Virus genome (UHGV): UHGV-0177677
From: a virus
Direction: 5' to 3' (one strand)
DNA length: 38,330 nt
Made by a program: the position numbers and the translations under genes
The notes under the pieces: model-generated
The model's database searches: none
The model's input: the letters and a program-made list of their open reading frames with translations, nothing else
Told to the model about the DNA's origin: nothing
Shown here: positions 1 to 35,660 of the stretch, one piece after another
Position numbering within the stretch: position 1 is the stretch's first letter
Layout: each line of letters starts with the position of its first letter

Positions 1-49
1 TTAGCAAGACTGTGTACATTTGTACACAATTGCAGAGAGAGGAAATGAC

Positions 50-586
50 ATGCGTCGCGCTAACGATCCGCAACGGCGAGAAAAAATTATCCAGGCCACG
101 CTGGAGGCGGTGAAACTTTACGGAATACATGCTGTTACACACCGCAAAATTGCTACCCTTGCCGGGGTGCCGTTGGGATCGATGACCTACTATTTTTCAG
201 GAATTGATGAGTTGTTGCTGGAGGCGTTCAGCCGTTTTACTGAGATCATGTCCCGGCAATATCAGGCATTTTTTAGCGATGTTAGTGATGCTCCAGGCGC
301 ATGCCAGGCTATCACCGATATGATCTACAGCTCACAGGTCGCAACGCCGGATAATATGGAGCTGATGTACCAGCTCTACGCGCTGGCCAGCCGAAAACCG
401 CTCTTAAAAACGGTAATGCAAAACTGGATGCAGCGCAGTCAACAAACGCTCGAACAATGGTTTGAACCCGGAACCGCCCGCGCGCTTGATGCGTTTATTG
501 AGGGAATGACGCTGCATTTTGTCACCGACCGTAAGCCGCTATCACGCGAGGAGATTTTGAGGATGGTTGAGAGGATTGCTGGGTAG
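50..586 (+). CDS. rcdA: TetR-family transcriptional regulator, host gene (YbjK/RcdA-like)
   Basis: Translation from ATG at 50 ([15 protein letters not shown]...) has an N-terminal TetR-type HTH and matches the E. coli YbjK/RcdA sequence as I recall it. The track ORF starts upstream at 20. Stop TAG at 584-586, just before the att core. Confidence 0.85.
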
Positions 587-590
587 TAGA

Positions 591-616
591 TAAATTTCAG
601 GCAACAAAAAACCCAT
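591..616. repeat. attL core (26-bp direct repeat taaatttcaggcaacaaaaaacccat)
   Basis: Identical 26-mer recurs at 35490-35515. Lies 5 bp after the rcdA stop and next to int. Confidence 0.8.
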
Positions 617-630
617 TTATGTAAATGGGT
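603..630 (-). terminator. Rho-independent terminator downstream of int (phage-supplied half of the split host terminator)
   Basis: Stem acccattta / taaatgggt at 611-630, followed on the minus strand by a T-run (plus-strand A-run 603-610). Confidence 0.5.
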
Positions 631-690
631 TAGTGAAAACAACGACTTGCAAGATAATCAATAAGTTAGGTTGGTGGTCAGTGGTGGTTA

Positions 691-1743
691 TTACGGGGTA
701 ATGCCAACCGCTGCCGCCACTTTGTCGCCACTTGGCAGCGTTGCCAGAGGATTGAAACGGAGCGCCGTTTCCAGATGATCCGGTGCCAGATGTGCGTAAC
801 GCATAGTCATTTTTATATCGTGGTGTCCGAGAATTTTTTGTAAGGCCAGAATGTTTCCACCCGACATCATGAAGTGCGCCGCAAACGTATGGCGCAGAAC
901 GTGTGTGAGTTGACCGCGAGGGAGCACGATAGACGTTTTTTCCATCACGGATAAAAATTGAAAATAGCAGTCTGTGAAGAAATTGAACCCATCAAGCGCC
1001 ATGATCTCTTCGTAAAGCTCTTTACTGATAGGGATGCTTCTGTTTTTCTTCCCCTTCGTTCTTACAAAGGTAATTCGGTATTTGGTCACCTGTGAACGAG
1101 TAAGATTTACGGCTTCTCGCCAGCGTGCGCCTGTGCTTAAGCATATCTTAACTACCAGTGCCAGAATTGGGTCCTGACGTTTGCAATCAGCCAGTAATTC
1201 AACAATCTGCTCATGGGTAAGCCATGCCATCTCTTTTTCTGCGATGGTGAATTTTCGCATGTTCTCCAGTGGGTTCGGATACGACCATTCGCCCAGGCGG
1301 GATAGTTCGCTAAAAACACTACTTAGATAGCTTTGCTCCAGGTTAATGGTGACCGGGCTTGCTCCTTTCTTCCATTTCTCGCTGAAGTAGATCTCACCTG
1401 TCAGGCGTTTATCTCGATAGTGGGCAAACATTTTAGAGGTTAGATCAGTTGCAAGGGGATTGCCCAGAGCGTCAACCATCAGCAGCAATTTGTCATAGAC
1501 ATGCTGCCCAGCAGTCAGTGATTTACCATGTAGTTTGAACCATAGCTCAACCACGTCTTTCAGTGTTCGACGATCCACTGATTCACCTAGCCAGGGCTTT
1601 GCTTCGGTTTCTTCCATCGTGTGACGCTCAAAAGCCAGTGCTTCGCCTTTGGTGGCGAATTGTTTACGCACACGACGCCCACTACGTCCGGCGGGGTAAC
1701 ATTCGCAAAGCCATTTTCCTGTGGTGAGTTTTCGTACAGCCAT
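691..1743 (-). CDS. int: Tyrosine integrase (P2 Int family)
   Basis: Translation MAVRKLTTGKW... with C-terminal tyrosine-recombinase motifs (HVLRHTFAAHF, MRYAHL). ATG at 1741-1743; the track ORF extends further upstream to 1821. Confidence 0.9.
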   Translation of the reverse strand: MAVRKLTTGKWLCECYPAGRSGRRVRKQFATKGEALAFERHTMEETEAKPWLGESVDRRTLKDVVELWFKLHGKSLTAGQHVYDKLLLMVDALGNPLATDLTSKMFAHYRDKRLTGEIYFSEKWKKGASPVTINLEQSYLSSVFSELSRLGEWSYPNPLENMRKFTIAEKEMAWLTHEQIVELLADCKRQDPILALVVKICLSTGARWREAVNLTRSQVTKYRITFVRTKGKKNRSIPISKELYEEIMALDGFNFFTDCYFQFLSVMEKTSIVLPRGQLTHVLRHTFAAHFMMSGGNILALQKILGHHDIKMTMRYAHLAPDHLETALRFNPLATLPSGDKVAAAVGITP

Positions 1744-1931
1744 AAAAAATGCCCTCCAATAGAGAGCATTTTTACTGTATGTATAACCAGTGTCAATGTA
1801 TGAAATCCTGCGACCATACATCTTACTGAAGCCATAATGAAGTAGGCTATTCTTTTTGCTATGTGATCATGTAACTTTTGCGGTTAACCTGTGGCTCATT
1901 TTTATTTTAGGCGCAGATATAAAAGCAAAAG

Positions 1932-2123
1932 TTATCGTGAGTTTTTAGTACAGATTTTTTTGGATTTACTAATAGTTCCATCATTGCAAACGAATTTGCC
2001 ATCAGAGGTACAGTGAGAAACACCTCCCTTTTTCCCTGAGCAGGGATAATTTCTAGCATAGGTAGCTAGTGGGTTTAATAACAAAGAACATGACAAAACC
2101 ACAAAAAATACCTTACCAAGCAT
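1932..2123 (-). CDS. Small secreted/lipoprotein-like Cys-rich peptide (moron, unknown function)
   Basis: 63 aa with a hydrophobic N-terminal signal ([16 protein letters not shown]...) followed by a Cys-containing hydrophilic tail. AT-rich, located between int and cI. Confidence 0.35.
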
Positions 2124-2138
2124 AATTTCCTCCCGGTA

Positions 2139-2714
2139 CTATTTAACATACTTGACTGTTAAACTTATAATTTTACCAATTATTTCAATGTCTTCTATCT
2201 TACATTCAAAGGCTCTGTTTCCACCCTCGACGAAGATTCTTCCACCGGGTAAACGAGTAATGTCACGGATCGTTATTTCGCCATCAATACTTATTACCCA
2301 TTTACCATCACGTATATCATCAAATTCCTTATCACAAATAAATTCAGAATTATTATCTGTGATTACAAAAAGATTCTTGAATGCCGACGGTAGAAATTCT
2401 CTATCGAAAATATAAAAACCGTCTTCACACAAGGCCCCATCAGATAATACATATTTAGCAACTTCCATAGTATTTGTATTACCTGAAGTTTGCTTTGAAC
2501 CATGCCCGGTTGTGAGCCAATTAAGCGAGGTGCCTGTTTCAAGGGCGCACTGGATTACCCATTCTGCTGGGAATGAGTCACGCATGTAGCGTGTGGCGAG
2601 TGTACTTTTAGAGATTCCTAAATGATCGCACAACGCCTGTCGAGTCTTGAATCCATAAGCTTCTACCATGCGCTCTATGGCGCCTCGTCCGCCTTTCTCC
2701 AAATTCATGGTCAC
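2139..2714 (-). CDS. cI: Immunity repressor, phage 186 CI-like
   Basis: 191 aa; N-terminal HTH (AYGF...LCDHLGISKSTLATRYMR, CALETG..NWLTTG) and overall resemblance to 186 CI at the same length. Divergent from apl/cII. Confidence 0.8.
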   Translation of the reverse strand: MTMNLEKGGRGAIERMVEAYGFKTRQALCDHLGISKSTLATRYMRDSFPAEWVIQCALETGTSLNWLTTGHGSKQTSGNTNTMEVAKYVLSDGALCEDGFYIFDREFLPSAFKNLFVITDNNSEFICDKEFDDIRDGKWVISIDGEITIRDITRLPGGRIFVEGGNRAFECKIEDIEIIGKIISLTVKYVK

Positions 2715-2732
2715 TCCAAGTGAACTTTTATC

Positions 2733-2761
2733 TTGACGATTTCACCATGCGATCGTATGTT
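2733..2761 (+). promoter_or_regulatory. Candidate lytic promoter pR (TTGACG-N17-TATGTT)
   Basis: -35 TTGACG at 2733-2738, 17-bp spacer, -10 TATGTT at 2756-2761, in the cI-apl intergenic region and oriented toward apl/cII. Confidence 0.45.
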
Positions 2762-2833
2762 TATGGTGTTCACAAAATACAAACGATCCGTATTCGTCCT
2801 GATTAATCATCATTAAACGAGGAATGTTGCATC

Positions 2834-3055
2834 ATGAGACCTAACATTTCAATCACTCTTACCACGCCTCATGTGACTATTGAACGCTATAGCGAGCTGA
2901 CAGGGCTATCCATCGATACCATCAATGACATGTTGGCTGATGGACGCCTTATCCGTCACCGTCTGCGCAAAGATAAAAAACGCGAAAAAGTGATGATCAA
3001 CATAGCAGCAATGACCGTTGATGCGCTTTCAGAATGCAATCTAAACCTTAATTAG
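2834..3055 (+). CDS. apl: Apl/Cox-like excisionase-regulator (small HTH protein)
   Basis: 73 aa, first gene of the rightward early operon, HTH-like segment ([21 protein letters not shown]). Position matches 186 apl. Confidence 0.55.
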
Positions 3056-3081
3056 TTCGATTCTGAAATACATCAGAGGCA

Positions 3082-3597
3082 TTGACCATGTTTGATTACC
3101 AAGTTTCCAAACATCCACATTTTGATGAAGCCTGTCGTGCATTTGCACTGCGCCACAATCTGGTGCAACTGGCAGAACGTGCAGGCATGAATGTGCAGAT
3201 TCTGCGGAACAAGCTGAACCCAGCTCAGCCTCATTTATTAACCGCACCAGAAATCTGGCTGCTTACCGATCTGACTGAAGATTCAACGCTGGTAGATGGT
3301 TTTCTGGCACAGATTCATTGTCTGCCATGTGTACCGATTAATGAGGTGGCAAAAGAGAAACTGCCACATTACGTCATGAGTGCAACCGCAGAGATCGGGC
3401 GTGTTGCTGCAGGTGCGGTGTCTGGCGATGTAAAAACCTGTGCCGGTCGTCGTGATGCTATCAGCAGCATTAACTCTGTAACACGACTGATGGCGCTGGC
3501 GGCTGTTTCATTGCAGGCCCGTTTACAGGCTAATCCTGCGATGGCGAGTGCAGTTGATACCGTGACTGGCCTCGGTGCTTCATTTGGTTTGCTGTGA
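3082..3597 (+). CDS. cII: CII-like establishment regulator (phage 186 CII homologue)
   Basis: 171 aa; strong resemblance to 186 CII ([18 protein letters not shown]...NPAM.S.VDT..G.GASFGL). Confidence 0.8.
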
Positions 3598-3604
3598 GGT
3601 GCTT

Positions 3605-3805
3605 ATGCTGACGAAAGAACCATCATTTGCATCGCTGCTGGTTAAACAAAGCCCGGCAATGCATTACGGTCACGGCTGGATCATGGGGGAGGATGGTAAA
3701 CGCTGGCATCCGTGCCGTTCACAAGATGAATTGCTGGCAGAACTATCTACGAAAAAACGGGGGAACAAATGGCTATTGAAGGCACTGCGGCGACTGTTCC
3801 ATTAA
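3605..3805 (+). CDS. Hypothetical early protein (position of 186 fil)
   Basis: 66 aa from ATG at 3605 with RBS tgaggtg, immediately after the cII stop. No recognisable motif. Confidence 0.4.
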   Translation: MLTKEPSFASLLVKQSPAMHYGHGWIMGEDGKRWHPCRSQDELLAELSTKKRGNKWLLKALRRLFH

Positions 3806-4110
3806 GCCCCGGTGAACGCCTGAATGGACTTAATCACATTGCGGAGTTAAGGGCGAAAGTTTTTGGCCTGAATATTGAGTCAGAGCTTGAGCGGTTTATT
3901 AAAGATATGCGTGATTCACGGGATATTAATAGCGAACAAAATAAACGGGCACTGGCTGCCATATTCTTTATGGCAAAAATTCCAGCTGAACGTCATAGCA
4001 TCAGCATTAATGAGCTGACCACTGACGAAAAGCGGGAGTTGATTAAAGCAATGAATCATTTTCGTGCAGTGGTGAGCTTATTTCCCAGACGGCTAACCAT
4101 GCCGAATTAA
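3769..4110 (+). CDS. Hypothetical early protein
   Basis: 113-aa ORF with RBS gggga, in the early operon. Confidence 0.45.
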   Translation: MAIEGTAATVPLSPGERLNGLNHIAELRAKVFGLNIESELERFIKDMRDSRDINSEQNKRALAAIFFMAKIPAERHSISINELTTDEKRELIKAMNHFRAVVSLFPRRLTMPN

Positions 4111-8647: not shown

Positions 8648-9073
8648 CTACTTAATTGAGTCCAGTAACAAGTTACAGTTACTCTCATTGTAGAGAGAAC
8701 GAGCAATTAGTGTTACCTGCTTTCCATTCATTCCCGGCTTATCCCATAACACAGCTTCTTGCGACGCCACAAATTCAGCATAATCAATTATGCGTTGTTC
8801 GTGATCTGGTTCCTCATAGCCAAAGTATGAGAGCGCATCGTTGTAAGCGTGGTAAGCTGCTTTCTGTAATATCTTGATATCGGCTGTAGGTACTTGCTCC
8901 GTGTAGCTAGGATCTAATTGTGTGCTACTGCCATAGAATGCACATGAAAGGTAAGATATTGATTTCTGTTGAGCTTTAGTTCCTTTCTCATAGTTTTTAG
9001 CTGTTACCGCCTGAACTGGGACGCTAACAAAGCTTGCAACCAGAATTAAAATTAATACGTAAAAGCTTTTCAT
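8648..9073 (-). CDS. Secreted/periplasmic hypothetical protein (moron)
   Basis: 141 aa with a signal peptide (MKSFYVLILILVASFVSVPVQA). Opposite strand to the neighbouring phage genes, relatively AT-rich. Confidence 0.5.
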   Translation of the reverse strand: MKSFYVLILILVASFVSVPVQAVTAKNYEKGTKAQQKSISYLSCAFYGSSTQLDPSYTEQVPTADIKILQKAAYHAYNDALSYFGYEEPDHEQRIIDYAEFVASQEAVLWDKPGMNGKQVTLIARSLYNESNCNLLLDSIK

Positions 9074-9345: not shown

Positions 9346-9371
9346 GGCCCGCCAGAACTGGCGGGCTTTTG
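9346..9371 (+). terminator. Rho-independent terminator-like hairpin
   Basis: gcccgccag / ctggcgggc stem followed by TTTT at 9367-9370. Confidence 0.4.
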
Positions 9372-9415
9372 CGTAGATTATGCACCTGCATGAAAACCAC
9401 TACATAAAGCGGGCA

Positions 9416-9434
9416 GGCGTGGCGGGGATACGAG
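9416..9434. other. Putative cos site (cohesive-end sequence)
   Basis: GGCGTGGCGGGGATACGAG: the first 13 nt equal the start of the 186 cohesive end as I recall it (GGCGTGGCGGGGAAAGCAT; P2 GGCGAGGCGGGGAAAGCAC). Confidence 0.45.
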
Positions 9435-9577
9435 CGCGCGCTTAGATGAAAACATGCGCTGTTAGACAGAAGATAGTCTTAGACTTGAAAGCACTCCTAT
9501 ACCTGGGTAAGTTATTGGAATACTCCCATTGATCTCCCGAAGACGACCTTGTGTTGCAATTTCAACAGGTAATTAAG

Positions 9578-10684
9578 ATGACAGGAAATGTCCCAGTAGT
9601 ACTTAGTGAAGCAGAAATGAAATCCATTTTGACACTAATCACGAGATTTCCATGGAACGTGGCAAAACCTGTTATTTCAGCTCTTGGATTAGCTCGTGGT
9701 AAAGGTAGAGATGCTACTCATGGAAAAATACTGGAAGAATTAACAGAATTAAAGGAAAAGAATTTAAATAAATTTAATGATATCATAAGGTCTGTAAATA
9801 ATTTGATATTTGGTCAATTGGTCTACGGTGATAAAGCTTTTTTTTGTTTATCAGTAGACAACCAAATAATTTCCTCGCTAACAAAGGCTATGAAATTAAA
9901 GTGGGATTTATCTGAACAGCCTTCTGTCGCCTCAGATGTAATCCTTTCTGAGCAGGAAATTAATGCGTCGGGGAAGAATAAAATAAACTTAGTTCATTAT
10001 TCTGAGAGCAATAATCAGGCTTTAGCTCTATTTAGTTCCGTTAGAGAGCAAAAAATTAGAGAGCGGATTTCGCCTAAAAGTTTACCGCAGTACAGTGGCT
10101 ACGAAGAGATCATTGCTACTAAAAAAGAAAAGCATCAATGTTTTGATGTGTGCATTTTTAATAAGACCAACTCTACTATCTCTATTTTGATAGATGCAGG
10201 TATTAATACAATAGGTGAGAGCGTCTTGTTTGCAAAGAGTACTGTAGTAAGAGAACTTTATAATATTATAGGTGCTGAGTTTGCATCAAAAGAAAGAGAT
10301 TTCTTTCCCTTGATTGAACCAATCTTTAAGCAAGATCAAAAACCATACTCAACTCTTAATTATAAAGTTTTTGAGCTTTCATTCCTTACCCCTGAAGGGA
10401 CAACACATAAGGAAAGGAAAACTGACTCCACTAAAGATTTGAGACAAGATATCTTCAATCAAGAAGGTATTAAAGCCGTAGGCAATATCGGACTTTATAG
10501 GATAGGCATCAGGGTTGAGCGAACAAATCCTTTACTACAGTTAGCGGACAATGTAGAACTTACTATACCAGGAACGCTAAGACGGTACCTTGGTGGAAGC
10601 TCTGGTTCACCAGTGAATTTTGCTATACTTAGTAAATGTATCTCTCGTGATGATTTCGAAACGCTTACGAAGCTGATACTATAG
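9578..10684 (+). CDS. Hypothetical protein, gene 1 of AT-rich three-gene accessory cassette
   Basis: About 368 aa from ATG at 9578 (the track ORF uses GTG at 9551). No recognisable motif. Strongly AT-rich. Confidence 0.6.
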   Translation: MTGNVPVVLSEAEMKSILTLITRFPWNVAKPVISALGLARGKGRDATHGKILEELTELKEKNLNKFNDIIRSVNNLIFGQLVYGDKAFFCLSVDNQIISSLTKAMKLKWDLSEQPSVASDVILSEQEINASGKNKINLVHYSESNNQALALFSSVREQKIRERISPKSLPQYSGYEEIIATKKEKHQCFDVCIFNKTNSTISILIDAGINTIGESVLFAKSTVVRELYNIIGAEFASKERDFFPLIEPIFKQDQKPYSTLNYKVFELSFLTPEGTTHKERKTDSTKDLRQDIFNQEGIKAVGNIGLYRIGIRVERTNPLLQLADNVELTIPGTLRRYLGGSSGSPVNFAILSKCISRDDFETLTKLIL

Positions 10685-10696
10685 CTGGAGACAAAA

Positions 10697-11125
10697 ATGA
10701 AGGATGCTAACTTGGCAAAGACTATACAAGACATATGCTCAGAACGCCCAGAAGTGGGAGTTTTGGCGTGCATGTTTTATGAAAAACTTGCTAAGTTAGC
10801 AGCTCGCTCTCCTAATATATTCATTAGTTATAACCTTTTATTTGATATAGCGATTTCGAATAAGGGGGGCGCTAAAGTGGATGAGCATGATATTTACTTG
10901 GCTATCCAAGTTTTGTGTAATCCAAAAGTTAATTTTTTGAAATTAAACTATCAATTTATAGACGATGGTTTCGATCCAGTTAATATAAGCATTGCGGACG
11001 TGATTGATGCTGAAGATAATCAAGGTTTAGAGCATCCATATACTGGTGAGATTGTGCCAGACTACAAAAAATATGTATTTCCTTTCTTTACAGTTATTAA
11101 TTTCACAAAGGAAGGGGCGTACTAA
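10697..11125 (+). CDS. Hypothetical protein, gene 2 of the accessory cassette
   Basis: 142 aa, RBS ggaga, 12 bp after gene 1. No recognisable motif. Confidence 0.6.
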   Translation: MKDANLAKTIQDICSERPEVGVLACMFYEKLAKLAARSPNIFISYNLLFDIAISNKGGAKVDEHDIYLAIQVLCNPKVNFLKLNYQFIDDGFDPVNISIADVIDAEDNQGLEHPYTGEIVPDYKKYVFPFFTVINFTKEGAY

Positions 11126-11772
11126 TGCTTACAAGTCTGGATGATTTGGAGAAAAACTTTCATTTGCAGAAGGTTCACTTTGCCATTCAAAGGATTCAAT
11201 TTGCGTTGGAGTCCTATTCTAATTTCAACAGTCTTGTTCGAAAGGAGCTGGATTACGCTGTAAGTAAATTAGAGCAAAATGGCAATAAAATTAACTTTGA
11301 TCTCTCTGAAGATCAGTTAACTCTATATTTGCTTTCGTATGTTGAAAATAGATATCTGGGGCTCGAAGCCAGTCACGAGAAGAACCAGAGAGGACATTGT
11401 GATATATCTATTACCCTTGCAGATTATATCTGGCATGGGGAAGCTAAAAAACATTCTTCATATTTATATCTTTTTAAAGGTTATGCACAACTTACCGAGC
11501 GGTATAGTACTGGGACTATAAATAGCTCTTCGGGTGGTTTAATTATTTATACGAAAAACGCTTCCTGTTCTGACATGATGGATTCATGGAAAACATTCTT
11601 ATCAAAGAATGCACCTAGGATTCATGCTTGTAAATCCGTTAATATTATTGATTGCCCAAAAAACCCCTTGGTTTTTTATAGTCAGCACCTTCATACTGTA
11701 AGTAAGCTGGATTATCAAGTTGTGCATTATCCTGTATCATTACATCATAAACCTATAGACCCTGATCTATAG
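11125..11772 (+). CDS. Hypothetical protein with possible PD-(D/E)xK nuclease-like motif, gene 3 of the accessory cassette
   Basis: 215 aa; start overlaps the gene 2 stop (TAATG). Segment GHCDISITLADYIWHGEAKK fits D-x12-E-x-K. Confidence 0.55.
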   Translation: MLTSLDDLEKNFHLQKVHFAIQRIQFALESYSNFNSLVRKELDYAVSKLEQNGNKINFDLSEDQLTLYLLSYVENRYLGLEASHEKNQRGHCDISITLADYIWHGEAKKHSSYLYLFKGYAQLTERYSTGTINSSSGGLIIYTKNASCSDMMDSWKTFLSKNAPRIHACKSVNIIDCPKNPLVFYSQHLHTVSKLDYQVVHYPVSLHHKPIDPDL

Positions 11773-11807
11773 GTTAGCTTTTGCGGGCTTATTCAGCTAT
11801 TTGAGAG

Positions 11808-12848
11808 TTATTGCTCAATTGAGAGCTGATACGCTTCAAAATTTATTACTTTTTCCTCAATCCATTCGTTCAGTTCGCACATACGTTTCTGCAATGGCTG
11901 CAGTTCGTTACGTACAAAAACGCGAGCGGCTTTTTCCACATCCCCAAACCCCCCGACATTATTAGGCATAATCCCCATCATTTGCGGCGGCACGCGATGC
12001 GCTGCCATCATGTCATCCCGACTCACGTTCTTGATGTTAAGAAATTCATCCTTCGCCGCGACTTCTGACAATGGGATGATCTGAAGCCCGTCTTTTTTAC
12101 CGTTAGGCGAGTACATAAACAAGTTGCGGAAGTTGCCTGGACCTTTGGCGCTTTTCATTGCGTTGCGGAGGTTGTTCACATCCTCCTGGTTTTGCGCGGC
12201 ATCGGTCATGTACATGATGAAGCCTGCATGACTACCGTTAATGTAATACTTCCGGCGGAACAGCGTGGCGGACTCGTTGAGCAGAGCGGACGGAATGGCA
12301 GAAAGATAACCGGGCAGGCCGTAGATCTCCTGGTTGATGTCCGGTTCCAACAGATGAAAGATGCTGCCTTTCGTGAACTGATACGGCTGGGTTGTCATAC
12401 CGTATTGCACAAACCAGTAGGTATCCAGGTCTAACCCGCGTCGGGTGTATTTTGCCAGCGCAGGCTCAAGAGCGATGACCTCTCCGAAGCGGTTCGTGCG
12501 TTTTTCCAGGTAGGCGTTACCAAAAACCAGATAGTCCTGTACAAAACGCGAAAAAGCCTGCTGGCTGAGCAGCGGGTGAGGGATGTAGGTGCTGGTCAGA
12601 ATGTTGCATTTCACCGCAATTGGTGAACTGTGATGCACGGCAGCGCGGAAGGTGCGCGCCAGTCCGTCAAAGCTGACAGGAGGCTCATACCAGCGATCTG
12701 TCTGTACGCATTCCACATAGTCCAGCAGTTCGCGGCGGTCAAGTACAGGAACGGGATCACCGAAGCTGAATGCTTCGGCTGAAGTCTGGCTTTTATGCTT
12801 GAGCTGATTCGTCGCCGCAGCGCGGTTTTTCTTACTCTTTCCCATCAA
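11808..12848 (-). CDS. Q: Portal protein (P2 gpQ)
   Basis: 346 aa, MMGKSKKNRAAA... P2 Q-like N-terminus. Adjacent to and overlapping the terminase gene. Confidence 0.9.
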   Translation of the reverse strand: MMGKSKKNRAAATNQLKHKSQTSAEAFSFGDPVPVLDRRELLDYVECVQTDRWYEPPVSFDGLARTFRAAVHHSSPIAVKCNILTSTYIPHPLLSQQAFSRFVQDYLVFGNAYLEKRTNRFGEVIALEPALAKYTRRGLDLDTYWFVQYGMTTQPYQFTKGSIFHLLEPDINQEIYGLPGYLSAIPSALLNESATLFRRKYYINGSHAGFIMYMTDAAQNQEDVNNLRNAMKSAKGPGNFRNLFMYSPNGKKDGLQIIPLSEVAAKDEFLNIKNVSRDDMMAAHRVPPQMMGIMPNNVGGFGDVEKAARVFVRNELQPLQKRMCELNEWIEEKVINFEAYQLSIEQ

Positions 12849-20573: not shown

Positions 20574-22094
20574 CTAAGCTGGGGTTATCAGAGTATCAAT
20601 TCTCTTGATATCTGCAGCCGTTGCGTGAGGGCATTTTTTCAGGATGTTTAGCCATTTTTTATCTCTGGGTTGGTATTCTAAGTCACCATCGGTTTCAAGT
20701 TTCGAAAGAATGCCAACAATATCACTGTGGCTAATCCAATCTTGTTTTTCTTTAAATACATTCCATGTTGCCCAGCACTTCCCTATTTCAGATGGGGACG
20801 ACCATCGCATAATTTCTATTATATGGGATATTTTTTTGTCGAAACTTTCAGTGCCGGGGCTAGGGCTTATTCTTAAAATGTTAGAGAAAGGTACTTCAGC
20901 ATAGTTGAAGTCCCAAACCCCTTCTGTTTCGATGCACATTTTGACAACAGAAGCATGAAAATCTTGACGTATAAGCTCGTCAGGGTAACCGTGATTGTTG
21001 CTAAGTGTTATGACTACATTAACTAAAGCATCGAACTCTCTGTAGGGGATAATATTGTCTGGAGAAAGAAGTTTTCCGCCGAATTGAATGTACAATATTG
21101 GTTTCTTTAGAATGTCAATTATGGCTTTTGTCACGGCCCAGCTTGCAGCTCTTTGAGGACATAAGGCTTCTAGTTCCGCTTTTTTATTTTTTTTTCCTTT
21201 CGTAACGGTATCCATTACAGTTTTTATTTTGGGAAGAACATGTTCGTGCTCAAGGTTGAAACGATGAGGTGATTCTTTAAAGGATTTATATTCCTGAGAT
21301 AAATCTGCAAGGAAGTCTTCTATGGTTGCTTTAATCAGGTGTATATTTTTTGATTTAAATAAATACTTTGTCTCCTCGAAAGTTAAAGGGTTTGCATCTG
21401 GGTGAATTACCATGAATGCTGGCGGGTTTTTTCCATGCAGATGTGCTAATGCTTCTTCATAAAGGAAACCTATATTGGGGTCGGTTAAGCTGTAACCGAT
21501 GAATATAGGGGACATTTCTGAAAACAATGTGTAAATTTTTCGGCTAAGATAAGTGTCTTCGCGCTGAAAAGAAAAGTATTGACTTTGTGTTATAACAATC
21601 GAATCAGGTTTTCCGACGTCACCATGAATTTTGAAGATATTTTTCCCTTTTGTTGATACTTTAGGGAATGGATCCTTTCTGATGATTTTATTTGCCATAT
21701 GCTCAAATGTTTCTTCAAGCACCTCATCCCAGTTAGTTGTTACAATTGTATTGGGAGCGAAGAGTTTGAATCTTTTAAGCCATCTTGGTTCTTTAGTTTC
21801 TGTTTTTAAATCTATAATCGTCCTGGCAACGAGCGAATTGAAATCATATTCTTTTATTGATGATTCACTCATCGCATAACTTAAAAGTAATTCTGCAGCA
21901 CGCAGAGGCTGTGATGAATCTAATTTTAACGGGTACTCTATTCGCTTTGCTATTTCTTCAAGTACGGCCCCCCAACTTGGATATCCGAAATTGTACGAAA
22001 ATCCAGAGCCAATCCAGAGGAAATAACTCTTTGAAAATACTGATGATAATAGGGATTTTTTATTTTCTGAAGATAATTGATCTAAGCAACTCAT
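20574..22094 (-). CDS. SIR2-like domain protein (ThsA/DSR-type N-terminal SIR2 plus unknown C-terminal domain); candidate NADase defence effector
   Basis: Motifs WIGSGFS, TTNWDEVLEE, KIHGD, FIGYSLTDPN match the defence-associated SIR2 family. Likely start is ATG at 22092-22094 with RBS ggaagga (the track ORF extends to 22163). AT-rich, opposite strand, inserted between S and V. Confidence 0.8.
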   Translation of the reverse strand: MSCLDQLSSENKKSLLSSVFSKSYFLWIGSGFSYNFGYPSWGAVLEEIAKRIEYPLKLDSSQPLRAAELLLSYAMSESSIKEYDFNSLVARTIIDLKTETKEPRWLKRFKLFAPNTIVTTNWDEVLEETFEHMANKIIRKDPFPKVSTKGKNIFKIHGDVGKPDSIVITQSQYFSFQREDTYLSRKIYTLFSEMSPIFIGYSLTDPNIGFLYEEALAHLHGKNPPAFMVIHPDANPLTFEETKYLFKSKNIHLIKATIEDFLADLSQEYKSFKESPHRFNLEHEHVLPKIKTVMDTVTKGKKNKKAELEALCPQRAASWAVTKAIIDILKKPILYIQFGGKLLSPDNIIPYREFDALVNVVITLSNNHGYPDELIRQDFHASVVKMCIETEGVWDFNYAEVPFSNILRISPSPGTESFDKKISHIIEIMRWSSPSEIGKCWATWNVFKEKQDWISHSDIVGILSKLETDGDLEYQPRDKKWLNILKKCPHATAADIKRIDTLITPA

Positions 22095-22128
22095 AAGAAT
22101 CCTTCCAAAACAGATTTGATGATCATCT

Positions 22129-22146
22129 TGTGTGGGTGACTGCACA
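22129..22146. promoter_or_regulatory. Late-promoter activator site TGT-N12-ACA upstream of V (P_V)
   Basis: TGTgtgggtgactgcACA, part of the palindrome TTGTG-N10-CACAA, about 55 bp upstream of the V start codon. Confidence 0.6.
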
Positions 22147-22192
22147 AACCTCTTTAATATCACTGTCGTTTACGATAGGCAATGATTTCCAT

Positions 22193-35489: not shown

Positions 35490-35515
35490 TAAATTTCAGG
35501 CAACAAAAAACCCAT
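35490..35515. repeat. attR core (26-bp direct repeat)
   Basis: Identical to 591-616. Confidence 0.8.
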
Positions 35516-35547
35516 CAACCTTGAACCGAAATGGCGGGGTTGATGGG
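35505..35547 (-). terminator. Rho-independent terminator of host ybjL (overlaps att core)
   Basis: Stem cccatcaacc / ggttgatggg at 35511-35547, followed on the minus strand by TTTTTTG. Confidence 0.55.
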
Positions 35548-35660
35548 CTCCACAAAATGGGGACATCAAAGAAAAGCAGTGGCACTAATTAAGACTGATG
35601 CCCTGCGGAAAAGTTCTGCGGTTGTGCAAAAAAAAATTCATTTTCAGGGCAACTTCAGTT

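Follow-up and report, generated by a model that had tools for sequence, protein, structure and literature searches.

RdgC forms ring dimers that bind double-stranded DNA without sequence specificity, and in E. coli it modulates RecA. The same fold occurs in the kinetochore proteins IML3 and CHL4 and in the lambda exclusion protein RexA, a dimer that also binds double-stranded DNA without sequence specificity. In P2-like phages, the gpA-gpQ interval is a hotspot of variable cargo, and protection has been demonstrated for old/tin, DUF4238, 3HP and DprA-PRTase from it (Rousset et al. 2022, PMC9122126). Rst_3HP ('hp + hp + hp', from E. coli E1114) is a three-gene operon without clear domains that protects against phage P1 (PMC9122126), and a 2026 census of P2/P4 cargo found 6 of 8 randomly chosen unknown P4-hotspot loci to be protective with 28 phages. 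Here we describe a cassette of about 2.2 kb with three co-directional, tightly coupled genes, which we call A, B and C, in the virus genome UHGV-0177677; the window, that is, the whole stretch of DNA analysed, comprises 38,330 nucleotides. The cassette is a strong candidate for a new defence system that is built from unnamed protein families. We give a probability of roughly 50% to the reading that it is a self-contained, horizontally mobile three-gene anti-phage system, carried as lysogenic cargo by a P2-like prophage and acting by the mechanism proposed below; that it serves anti-phage defence in one form or another seems rather probable.

For protein C, motif and fold both predict a nuclease of the PD-(D/E)xK type that has a complete active site and a BamHI-like fold, which confirms a signature that a preliminary description of the locus had called possible. 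Across 31 aligned homologues, the most distant of them at 33% identity, a GHCD...W..EAK(K)H core, an ED pair and an RY pair were invariant. Residues E62, D63, G90, H91, D93, E106, K108, R126 and Y127 were each retained in 28 of 28 distinct C sequences from all fetched loci. The AlphaFold2 model of C (predicted local distance difference test (pLDDT) 92, predicted template modelling score (pTM) 0.87) has an N-terminal helical hairpin, and the catalytic D...(D/E)xK motif is present on the conserved alpha-beta core. In structure, C is closest to the BamHI family of Type II restriction enzymes (OkrAI, BamHI, BstYI and BglII), followed by McrC and several defence nucleases, namely Can2, HamA, NucC, the LlaBIII nuclease domain and SduA. 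When PDB sequences were searched with profiles of the three proteins, built from narrow as well as from broad alignments, no match was obtained.

Outside the trio, the C family has further members whose active sites are intact; these lack A and B and are translationally coupled to Type ISP restriction-modification enzymes. In two lineages, lone C-like genes overlap by 4 nucleotides the 3' end of Type ISP genes that encode proteins of ~1,770 amino acids. We found this arrangement in Sneathiella and in a metagenomic plasmid-like element with flanking HipA toxin-antitoxin genes and ParAB. The Type ISP-linked gene may be an undescribed accessory subunit of these enzymes. Because the C family is also attached to Type ISP restriction enzymes, we read it as a portable effector, and its distribution suggests a module that partners DNA-tracking proteins.

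The three genes recur as a unit, a point that the preliminary description had raised as a question. A local hidden Markov model search covered 27 metagenomic loci with distant A relatives together with the genome loci. In every locus with enough downstream sequence, the order A, B, C and the shared strand were held, usually with overlapping stop and start codons, and B or C was absent only where the contig ends. This order is conserved down to ~20-25% identity, including Alphaproteobacteria and metagenomes. An exhaustive profile search with A returned 418 cluster representatives at E <=1e-3 and 215 at <=1e-10, nearly all of them 340-380 amino acids long and matched over their full length. The window's own allele of A, B and C is found on 629, 638 and 707 contigs, respectively. 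In Bradyrhizobium, the trio (352/137/259 amino acids) consists of a homologous A (hhalign 98.2%), B (97.4%) and C (38% identity).

The fixed trio is carried by several types of mobile elements, in some cases beside defence genes. P2-like prophages with the trio were found in Escherichia, Klebsiella (phage KP12), Plesiomonas and Rosenbergiella, where it always abuts portal gene Q. In seven Stx1a-converting lambdoid phages, a distant trio (350/130/221 amino acids) is located on the opposite strand between antiterminator gene Q and stx1AB. The 6.1-kb mobilisable Col(Ye4449) plasmid pRGF99-1-6115bp of K. pneumoniae (NZ_CP075557) has the trio as its main cargo and otherwise only rep, mob and RelE/ParE toxin-antitoxin genes; the cluster of the plasmid's A protein is present on 104 contigs, mostly ~6.1-6.4 kb in size, of Klebsiella and Salmonella. 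Larger plasmids of Leclercia, Pantoea and Enterobacter carry the trio as well, and further loci adjoin a gene for a TraG/type IV secretion system coupling protein of a conjugative element, a phage tail gene and a HerA-methylase operon (one each). In a small island of Bradyrhizobium yuanmingense, the trio stands between an integrase and a SIR2-short prokaryotic Argonaute (pAgo) system (PADLOC pAgo_I, 3e-85). Among 5,426 complete E. coli genomes, 27 have the trio, 6 of them with the window's allele, and ~1,240 E. coli genomes share the cos site next to it; the trio is therefore dispensable for P2-like phages.

Protein A is predicted to belong to the RdgC/RexA/IML3 fold class. The confident model of the monomer (pLDDT 87, pTM 0.84) opens at the N-terminus with four helices over ~83 residues and continues with alpha+beta domains, and an RdgC-like fold was returned by two methods and two libraries. 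With Foldseek, the viral structure library yielded phage entries annotated as 'recombination-associated protein RdgC' (E 2e-8 to 6e-4, probability 0.99-1.0). The template modelling (TM) scores of these matches are low (0.3-0.46), as would be expected if the domain orientations differ. At the level of profiles, hhalign gave a probability of 0.1% for A against E. coli RdgC, with no Pfam RdgC (PF04381) match, and of 0.16% for the A profile against lambda RexA, again with no Pfam match. Among 70 diverse A-family members, none matched the Pfam RdgC model, no consistent Pfam family was found, and no PADLOC model was matched by more than one member.

In two independent loci, insertion sequences (IS) disrupt A and leave B and C intact. 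One of them (L040, 4812-7060) encodes an IS5-like transposase along with a passenger gene that is kinase-like, and its terminal inverted repeats measure 21 nucleotides; in the other (L041, 2063-3265) the inverted repeats measure 29 nucleotides. Four more loci (L015, L031, L043 and L044) have a split A, owing to frameshifts or perhaps to errors of assembly. Since B and C stay intact when A is interrupted, loss of A appears to be tolerated. From these few cases we infer that A is not the restraint on the nuclease, which fits an activator or a sensor.

Protein B matches phrog_11490 (E 6e-31) and is acidic in 14 of 14 close homologues, with isoelectric points of 4.2-5.8 and net charges of -4 to -15. 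Its FIDD and HPxTGE motifs are kept in homologues that are only ~20% identical. B itself had no match in Pfam or the PDB, and 23 diverse B homologues searched against Pfam gave nothing consistent.

The coordinates and junctions of the three genes (Table 1) bear out the co-directional, coupled reading frames that had been described before. For gene A, the ATG start was chosen by RefSeq and has an AGG ~8 nucleotides upstream, with a GTG at 9551 as an alternative (9551-10684, 377 amino acids). The stop codon of A is followed by CTGGAGacaaaaATG, which provides a GGAG ribosome-binding site ahead of B. B and C overlap in TAATG, with GGAAGGGG just before. A, B and C all lack a transmembrane segment: the maximal 19-residue Kyte-Doolittle values were 1.43, 0.90 and 0.52 for A, B and C, respectively.

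The window contains a P2/186-like prophage that is integrated beside rcdA. An identical prophage is present in E. coli CU532-9, and we used its RefSeq annotation for the gene content. Before the trio it encodes integrase, CI, CII, Fil, Dam methylase, replication endonuclease A and a DinI-like gene; after the trio follow portal Q, terminase P and then capsid, lysis and tail genes. The slot that the cassette fills is bounded by cos and by the convergent portal gene; the DinI-like gene is on the opposite side of cos. Within 9400-11800, nothing but the cos segment is shared with ~1,240 E. coli genomes and with a large number of P2-like phages, and the record of phage Cartapus labels the same bases 'putative cos site, homologous to the cos of P2 phage'. 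Because similarity to other P2-like phages stops just past cos, the non-coding stretch ahead of A was assigned to the AT-rich insert. This insert (9446-11807) has a GC content of 0.36 and a GC content at third codon positions (GC3) of 0.29-0.33, versus 0.53 in repA and 0.55 in portal/terminase, with a GC3 of 0.58-0.61 in these flanks. The sharply AT-rich block of the preliminary description is thus found again, and a GC content of 36% between flanks of 53-55% marks the cassette as foreign cargo. The cos-portal slot lies within the gpA-gpQ hotspot of Rousset et al. 2022 (PMC9122126). The locus had also been likened to the place of old and tin in P2; the hotspot is indeed the same, but in P2 the two genes lie between gene A of that phage and cos, that is, on the other side. 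Rfam matched no structured RNA family in or near the cassette.

Table 1. Positions of the cassette, its neighbours and related loci
Feature	Sequence	Position	Strand	Description
Gene A	window	9578-10684	+	368 amino acids; RdgC-like fold (predicted); proposed DNA-binding sensor or scaffold
Gene B	window	10697-11125	+	142 amino acids, conserved acidic; proposed adaptor or nuclease regulator
Gene C	window	11125-11772	+	215 amino acids; predicted PD-(D/E)xK nuclease, BamHI-like fold; proposed effector
Upstream non-coding region	window	9446-9577	+	AT-rich; presumed place of the cassette's own promoter
cos site, P2-type	window	9400-9445	.	left edge of the variable cargo slot
Portal gene Q	window	11808-12848	-	convergent with the cassette, right neighbour
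Type ISP-linked C genes	fetched loci L003/L004	8001-8621
Type ISP-linked C genes	fetched loci L005-L008	e.g. L005 7001-7624
Stx1a trio	L046; Stx1a-converting phage Stx1_499, LC567825	4857-6964
Plasmid trio	L047; pRGF99-1-6115bp	48-2186
SIR2-APAZ-type protein (925 amino acids) and short pAgo	L002; Bradyrhizobium yuanmingense	1-3828		small defence island, beside integrase and trio

Searches of A, B and C against Pfam, NCBIfam and PADLOC-DB 2.0.0 (the state of 2023) gave no match, for PADLOC at an E value of 0.1 or better, in agreement with the earlier description, which could assign no known family to the first two proteins. The PADLOC search covers the PD-T4, PD-T7 and PD-Lambda systems of Vassallo, the PDC candidates, Hachiman, Lamassu, Shedu and Old. 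Each protein falls into a single PHROG of unknown function (phrog_12777, phrog_11490 and phrog_9664 for A, B and C), and all database copies are annotated as 'hypothetical protein'. Profile searches did not return any homology to morphogenesis or packaging proteins. In the literature available we found no description of the trio, nor of an RdgC-like protein with a nuclease in defence, and no mention of the accessions or motifs of the three proteins, an incomplete negative with naming after 2023 only partly excluded.

Rst_3HP was the first suspect, as it consists of three hypothetical proteins in the same hotspot, and it was ruled out by the absence of sequence and profile similarity. Using the protein sequences of Table S2A of PMC9122126, A, B and C gave a best blastp E value of at least 0.6 and phmmer scores of 0 or below against Hp1-3 of E. 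coli E1114, and hhalign of the three family profiles against hp1-3 gave probabilities of 0.1-2.1%. None of the other P2/P4 systems in Table S2 of PMC9122126 holds A, B or C proteins. With P2 Tin, hhalign probabilities were 0.1-0.2%, and no OLD, Toprim or ABC-ATPase match was found in Pfam or PADLOC. Together with the comparisons to RexA and RdgC given above, these searches agree with the preliminary description, which had been unable to match the cassette to a named system.

A large sensor, a small adaptor and a nuclease effector had been put forward as the layout of the cassette. This is plausible because A has the RdgC/RexA DNA-binding fold; the roles of A and B are putative. In the mechanism that we propose, A, probably as a dimeric clamp on double-stranded DNA, would recognise the DNA of a phage that enters or replicates, or else a DNA-protein, replication or recombination intermediate, much like the sensing suggested for RexA. 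B would bridge A to C and keep the nuclease inactive in uninfected cells. Once activated, C would cut DNA, so that the phage genome is destroyed or the infection aborted. We hold this specific division of labour tentatively. A wider scheme, in which an RdgC-fold clamp is an innate immune sensor that licenses, via an acidic adaptor, a BamHI-like nuclease pluggable into either A-B or Type ISP translocases, would amount to an undescribed system; we consider it doubtful.

Several points weigh against defence by this mechanism. Phage RdgC homologues are commonly taken as recombination accessories. Many neighbours of metagenomic trios are ordinary housekeeping genes, as judged by inspection. A consensus scan revealed no strong sigma-70 site or other convincing promoter upstream of A. 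The role of B as adaptor or inhibitor is a guess from its charge, size and position, as the protein has no assignable fold. We infer function and mechanism for the cassette and likewise for every family member. Finally, only 3 of 8 new P2-hotspot loci were protective in tests with eight phages (Rousset et al., PMC9122126); together with the P4-hotspot census, this makes the priors of such hotspots for defence favourable, not decisive.

The alternative that survives best, although we think it unlikely, is a toxin-antitoxin addiction module, with C as toxin, B as antitoxin and A as regulator or third part, which stabilises its carriers and for which phage defence would be secondary. A small, acidic protein encoded directly upstream of C, with an overlap of 1-4 nucleotides, is the typical layout of such pairs. 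Small Col plasmids have the trio as their main cargo, and B and C persist together when an IS disrupts A. However, full-length A is kept with B and C over hundreds of clusters and deep divergence, which is unexpected for a dispensable accessory, and the 6.1-kb plasmid already has its RelE/ParE pair. Moreover, the C-family nucleases attached to Type ISP enzymes occur without B, which is therefore not an obligatory antidote. A toxin-antitoxin function and defence by abortive infection are compatible and do not exclude each other.

A classical Type II restriction-modification system was rejected, since a methyltransferase adjoins the trio in only ~2 of 10 inspected loci and none is encoded on the 6.1-kb plasmid; the prophage's own Dam-type methylase gene lies ~4 kb from the cassette, upstream of repA. 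The same scarcity of methyltransferases would suit a Type IV-like modification-dependent, or a sequence- or structure-specific, restriction complex, in which A and B recognise the target and C cleaves it, with neither a methyltransferase nor cell killing. The BamHI-family enzymes and McrC as closest structural relatives of C, the association of C with Type ISP restriction enzymes and the DNA-binding fold of A would all be in line with such a complex. Against it, Pfam found no modification-reader domain (SRA, YTH, PUA, DUF3427-like) in A or B, and RdgC and RexA bind DNA without sequence specificity. We regard a complex of this kind, which departs from the proposed sensor-triggered defence system solely in target discrimination, as quite improbable.

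Very improbable, finally, is a DNA-metabolism or counter-defence module of the mobile element, in which an RdgC-like modulator of RecA/RecBCD and a nuclease would help the element to recombine, to restart replication or to escape the nucleases of the host: among viral structures, A is matched most closely by phage proteins annotated as recombination-associated RdgC, E. coli RdgC modulates RecA and the cassette is near a DinI-like, SOS-related gene, but the trio is dispensable for the P2 life cycle (27 of 5,426 E. coli genomes versus ~1,240 with the same cos), occurs also on tiny Col plasmids and at phage-free chromosomal sites, is encoded on the strand opposite to the late genes in the Stx phages, and has in C a protein that is linked to restriction enzymes and whose fold is the BamHI-like restriction fold, not that of a lambda-Exo/RecE recombination nuclease.

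Some further features of the prophage were observed around the cassette and beyond it. Directly before cos, at 9347-9370, a GC-rich hairpin (GCCCGCC-AGAACT-GGCGGGC) is followed by TTTT; it was not listed by the terminator scan. The same hairpin adjoins cos in the 3HP fragment that Rousset et al. cloned. We read it as a probable conserved terminator, which would insulate the cos region and shield the cassette from upstream transcription. Between the DinI-like gene and cos, an open reading frame of 141 amino acids (8648-9073, minus strand) with a signal-peptide-like N-terminus is annotated as hypothetical and had no PADLOC match. Possibly this frame is another piece of hotspot cargo, such as a surface or exclusion protein.

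A second AT-rich block (20574-22163, minus strand, GC 0.36-0.40) contains a SIR2-family gene of ~506-529 codons between tail genes S and V. This gene matches the PADLOC candidate PDC-S25 (9e-29) and ThsA-type SIR2 models, and the block probably represents another defence cargo of this prophage, located in a second hotspot. Towards the end of the window, the small RNA gene RybB was found at 35502-35580 on the minus strand (Rfam, 105 bits). Since RybB belongs to the host chromosome, the prophage ends on the right before ~35.5 kb, and a drop in GC content at 35.0-35.5 kb may mark the attachment site.

If anti-phage activity of the cassette is confirmed, a compact three-gene system would be added to the known ones, with all three families so far annotated as hypothetical only. 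It would be a defence system that is spread over Proteobacteria on phages, plasmids and islands, with a soluble relative of the RexA sensing step. Candidates for new defence systems are frequent by now; this one is compact and can be interpreted in structural terms. Its carriers are clinically relevant, as they include prophages and plasmids of Escherichia, Klebsiella, Salmonella and Enterobacter and Stx1a-converting phages, and prophage cargo of this sort affects host range predictions in phage therapy.

Compared with known systems, the cassette resembles Rst_3HP as a three-gene operon in the P2 gpA-gpQ hotspot, a shared location that is not evidence of homology. The proteins differ in size (333/359/227 amino acids in Rst_3HP versus 368/142/215), and Rst_3HP is located on the gene-A side of cos, as seen from its cloned sequence, whereas the cassette is on the portal side. 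By sequence and profile comparison, the cassette is unrelated to Rst_3HP and a member of none of the RexAB, Hachiman and Lamassu families. With Hachiman (HamA nuclease and HamB helicase) and Lamassu (SMC-like sensor, nuclease and small subunit) it would share the principle that a DNA-surveying protein controls a PD-(D/E)xK nuclease. However, the models of HamA, HamB and LmuA/B/C were unmatched in PADLOC and Pfam, and the cassette has no helicase, ATPase or SMC component.

On the effector side, the BamHI-family enzymes OkrAI, BamHI, BstYI and BglII are only 5-11% identical to C, which has the N-terminal helical hairpin in addition, and a cognate methyltransferase is neither inside the cassette nor consistently adjoining. 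On the sensor side, A differs from RdgC (PDB 2owl) by its extra N-terminal four-helix region of ~83 residues, and RdgC is encoded on its own in the chromosome, whereas B and C always come after A. RexAB is likewise a system that a prophage expresses, RexA has the RdgC/IML3 fold class that is predicted for A, and the logic of a sensor with a separate effector is the same. The differences are that A has no sequence relation to RexA, RexAB has no counterpart of the third, acidic protein, and its effector RexB is a multi-pass membrane protein, whereas the predicted effector of the cassette is a soluble PD-(D/E)xK nuclease. The cassette would thus tie the RdgC/RexA DNA-binding fold to a soluble nuclease and offer a tractable system for infection sensing, a question that for lambda Rex is decades old.

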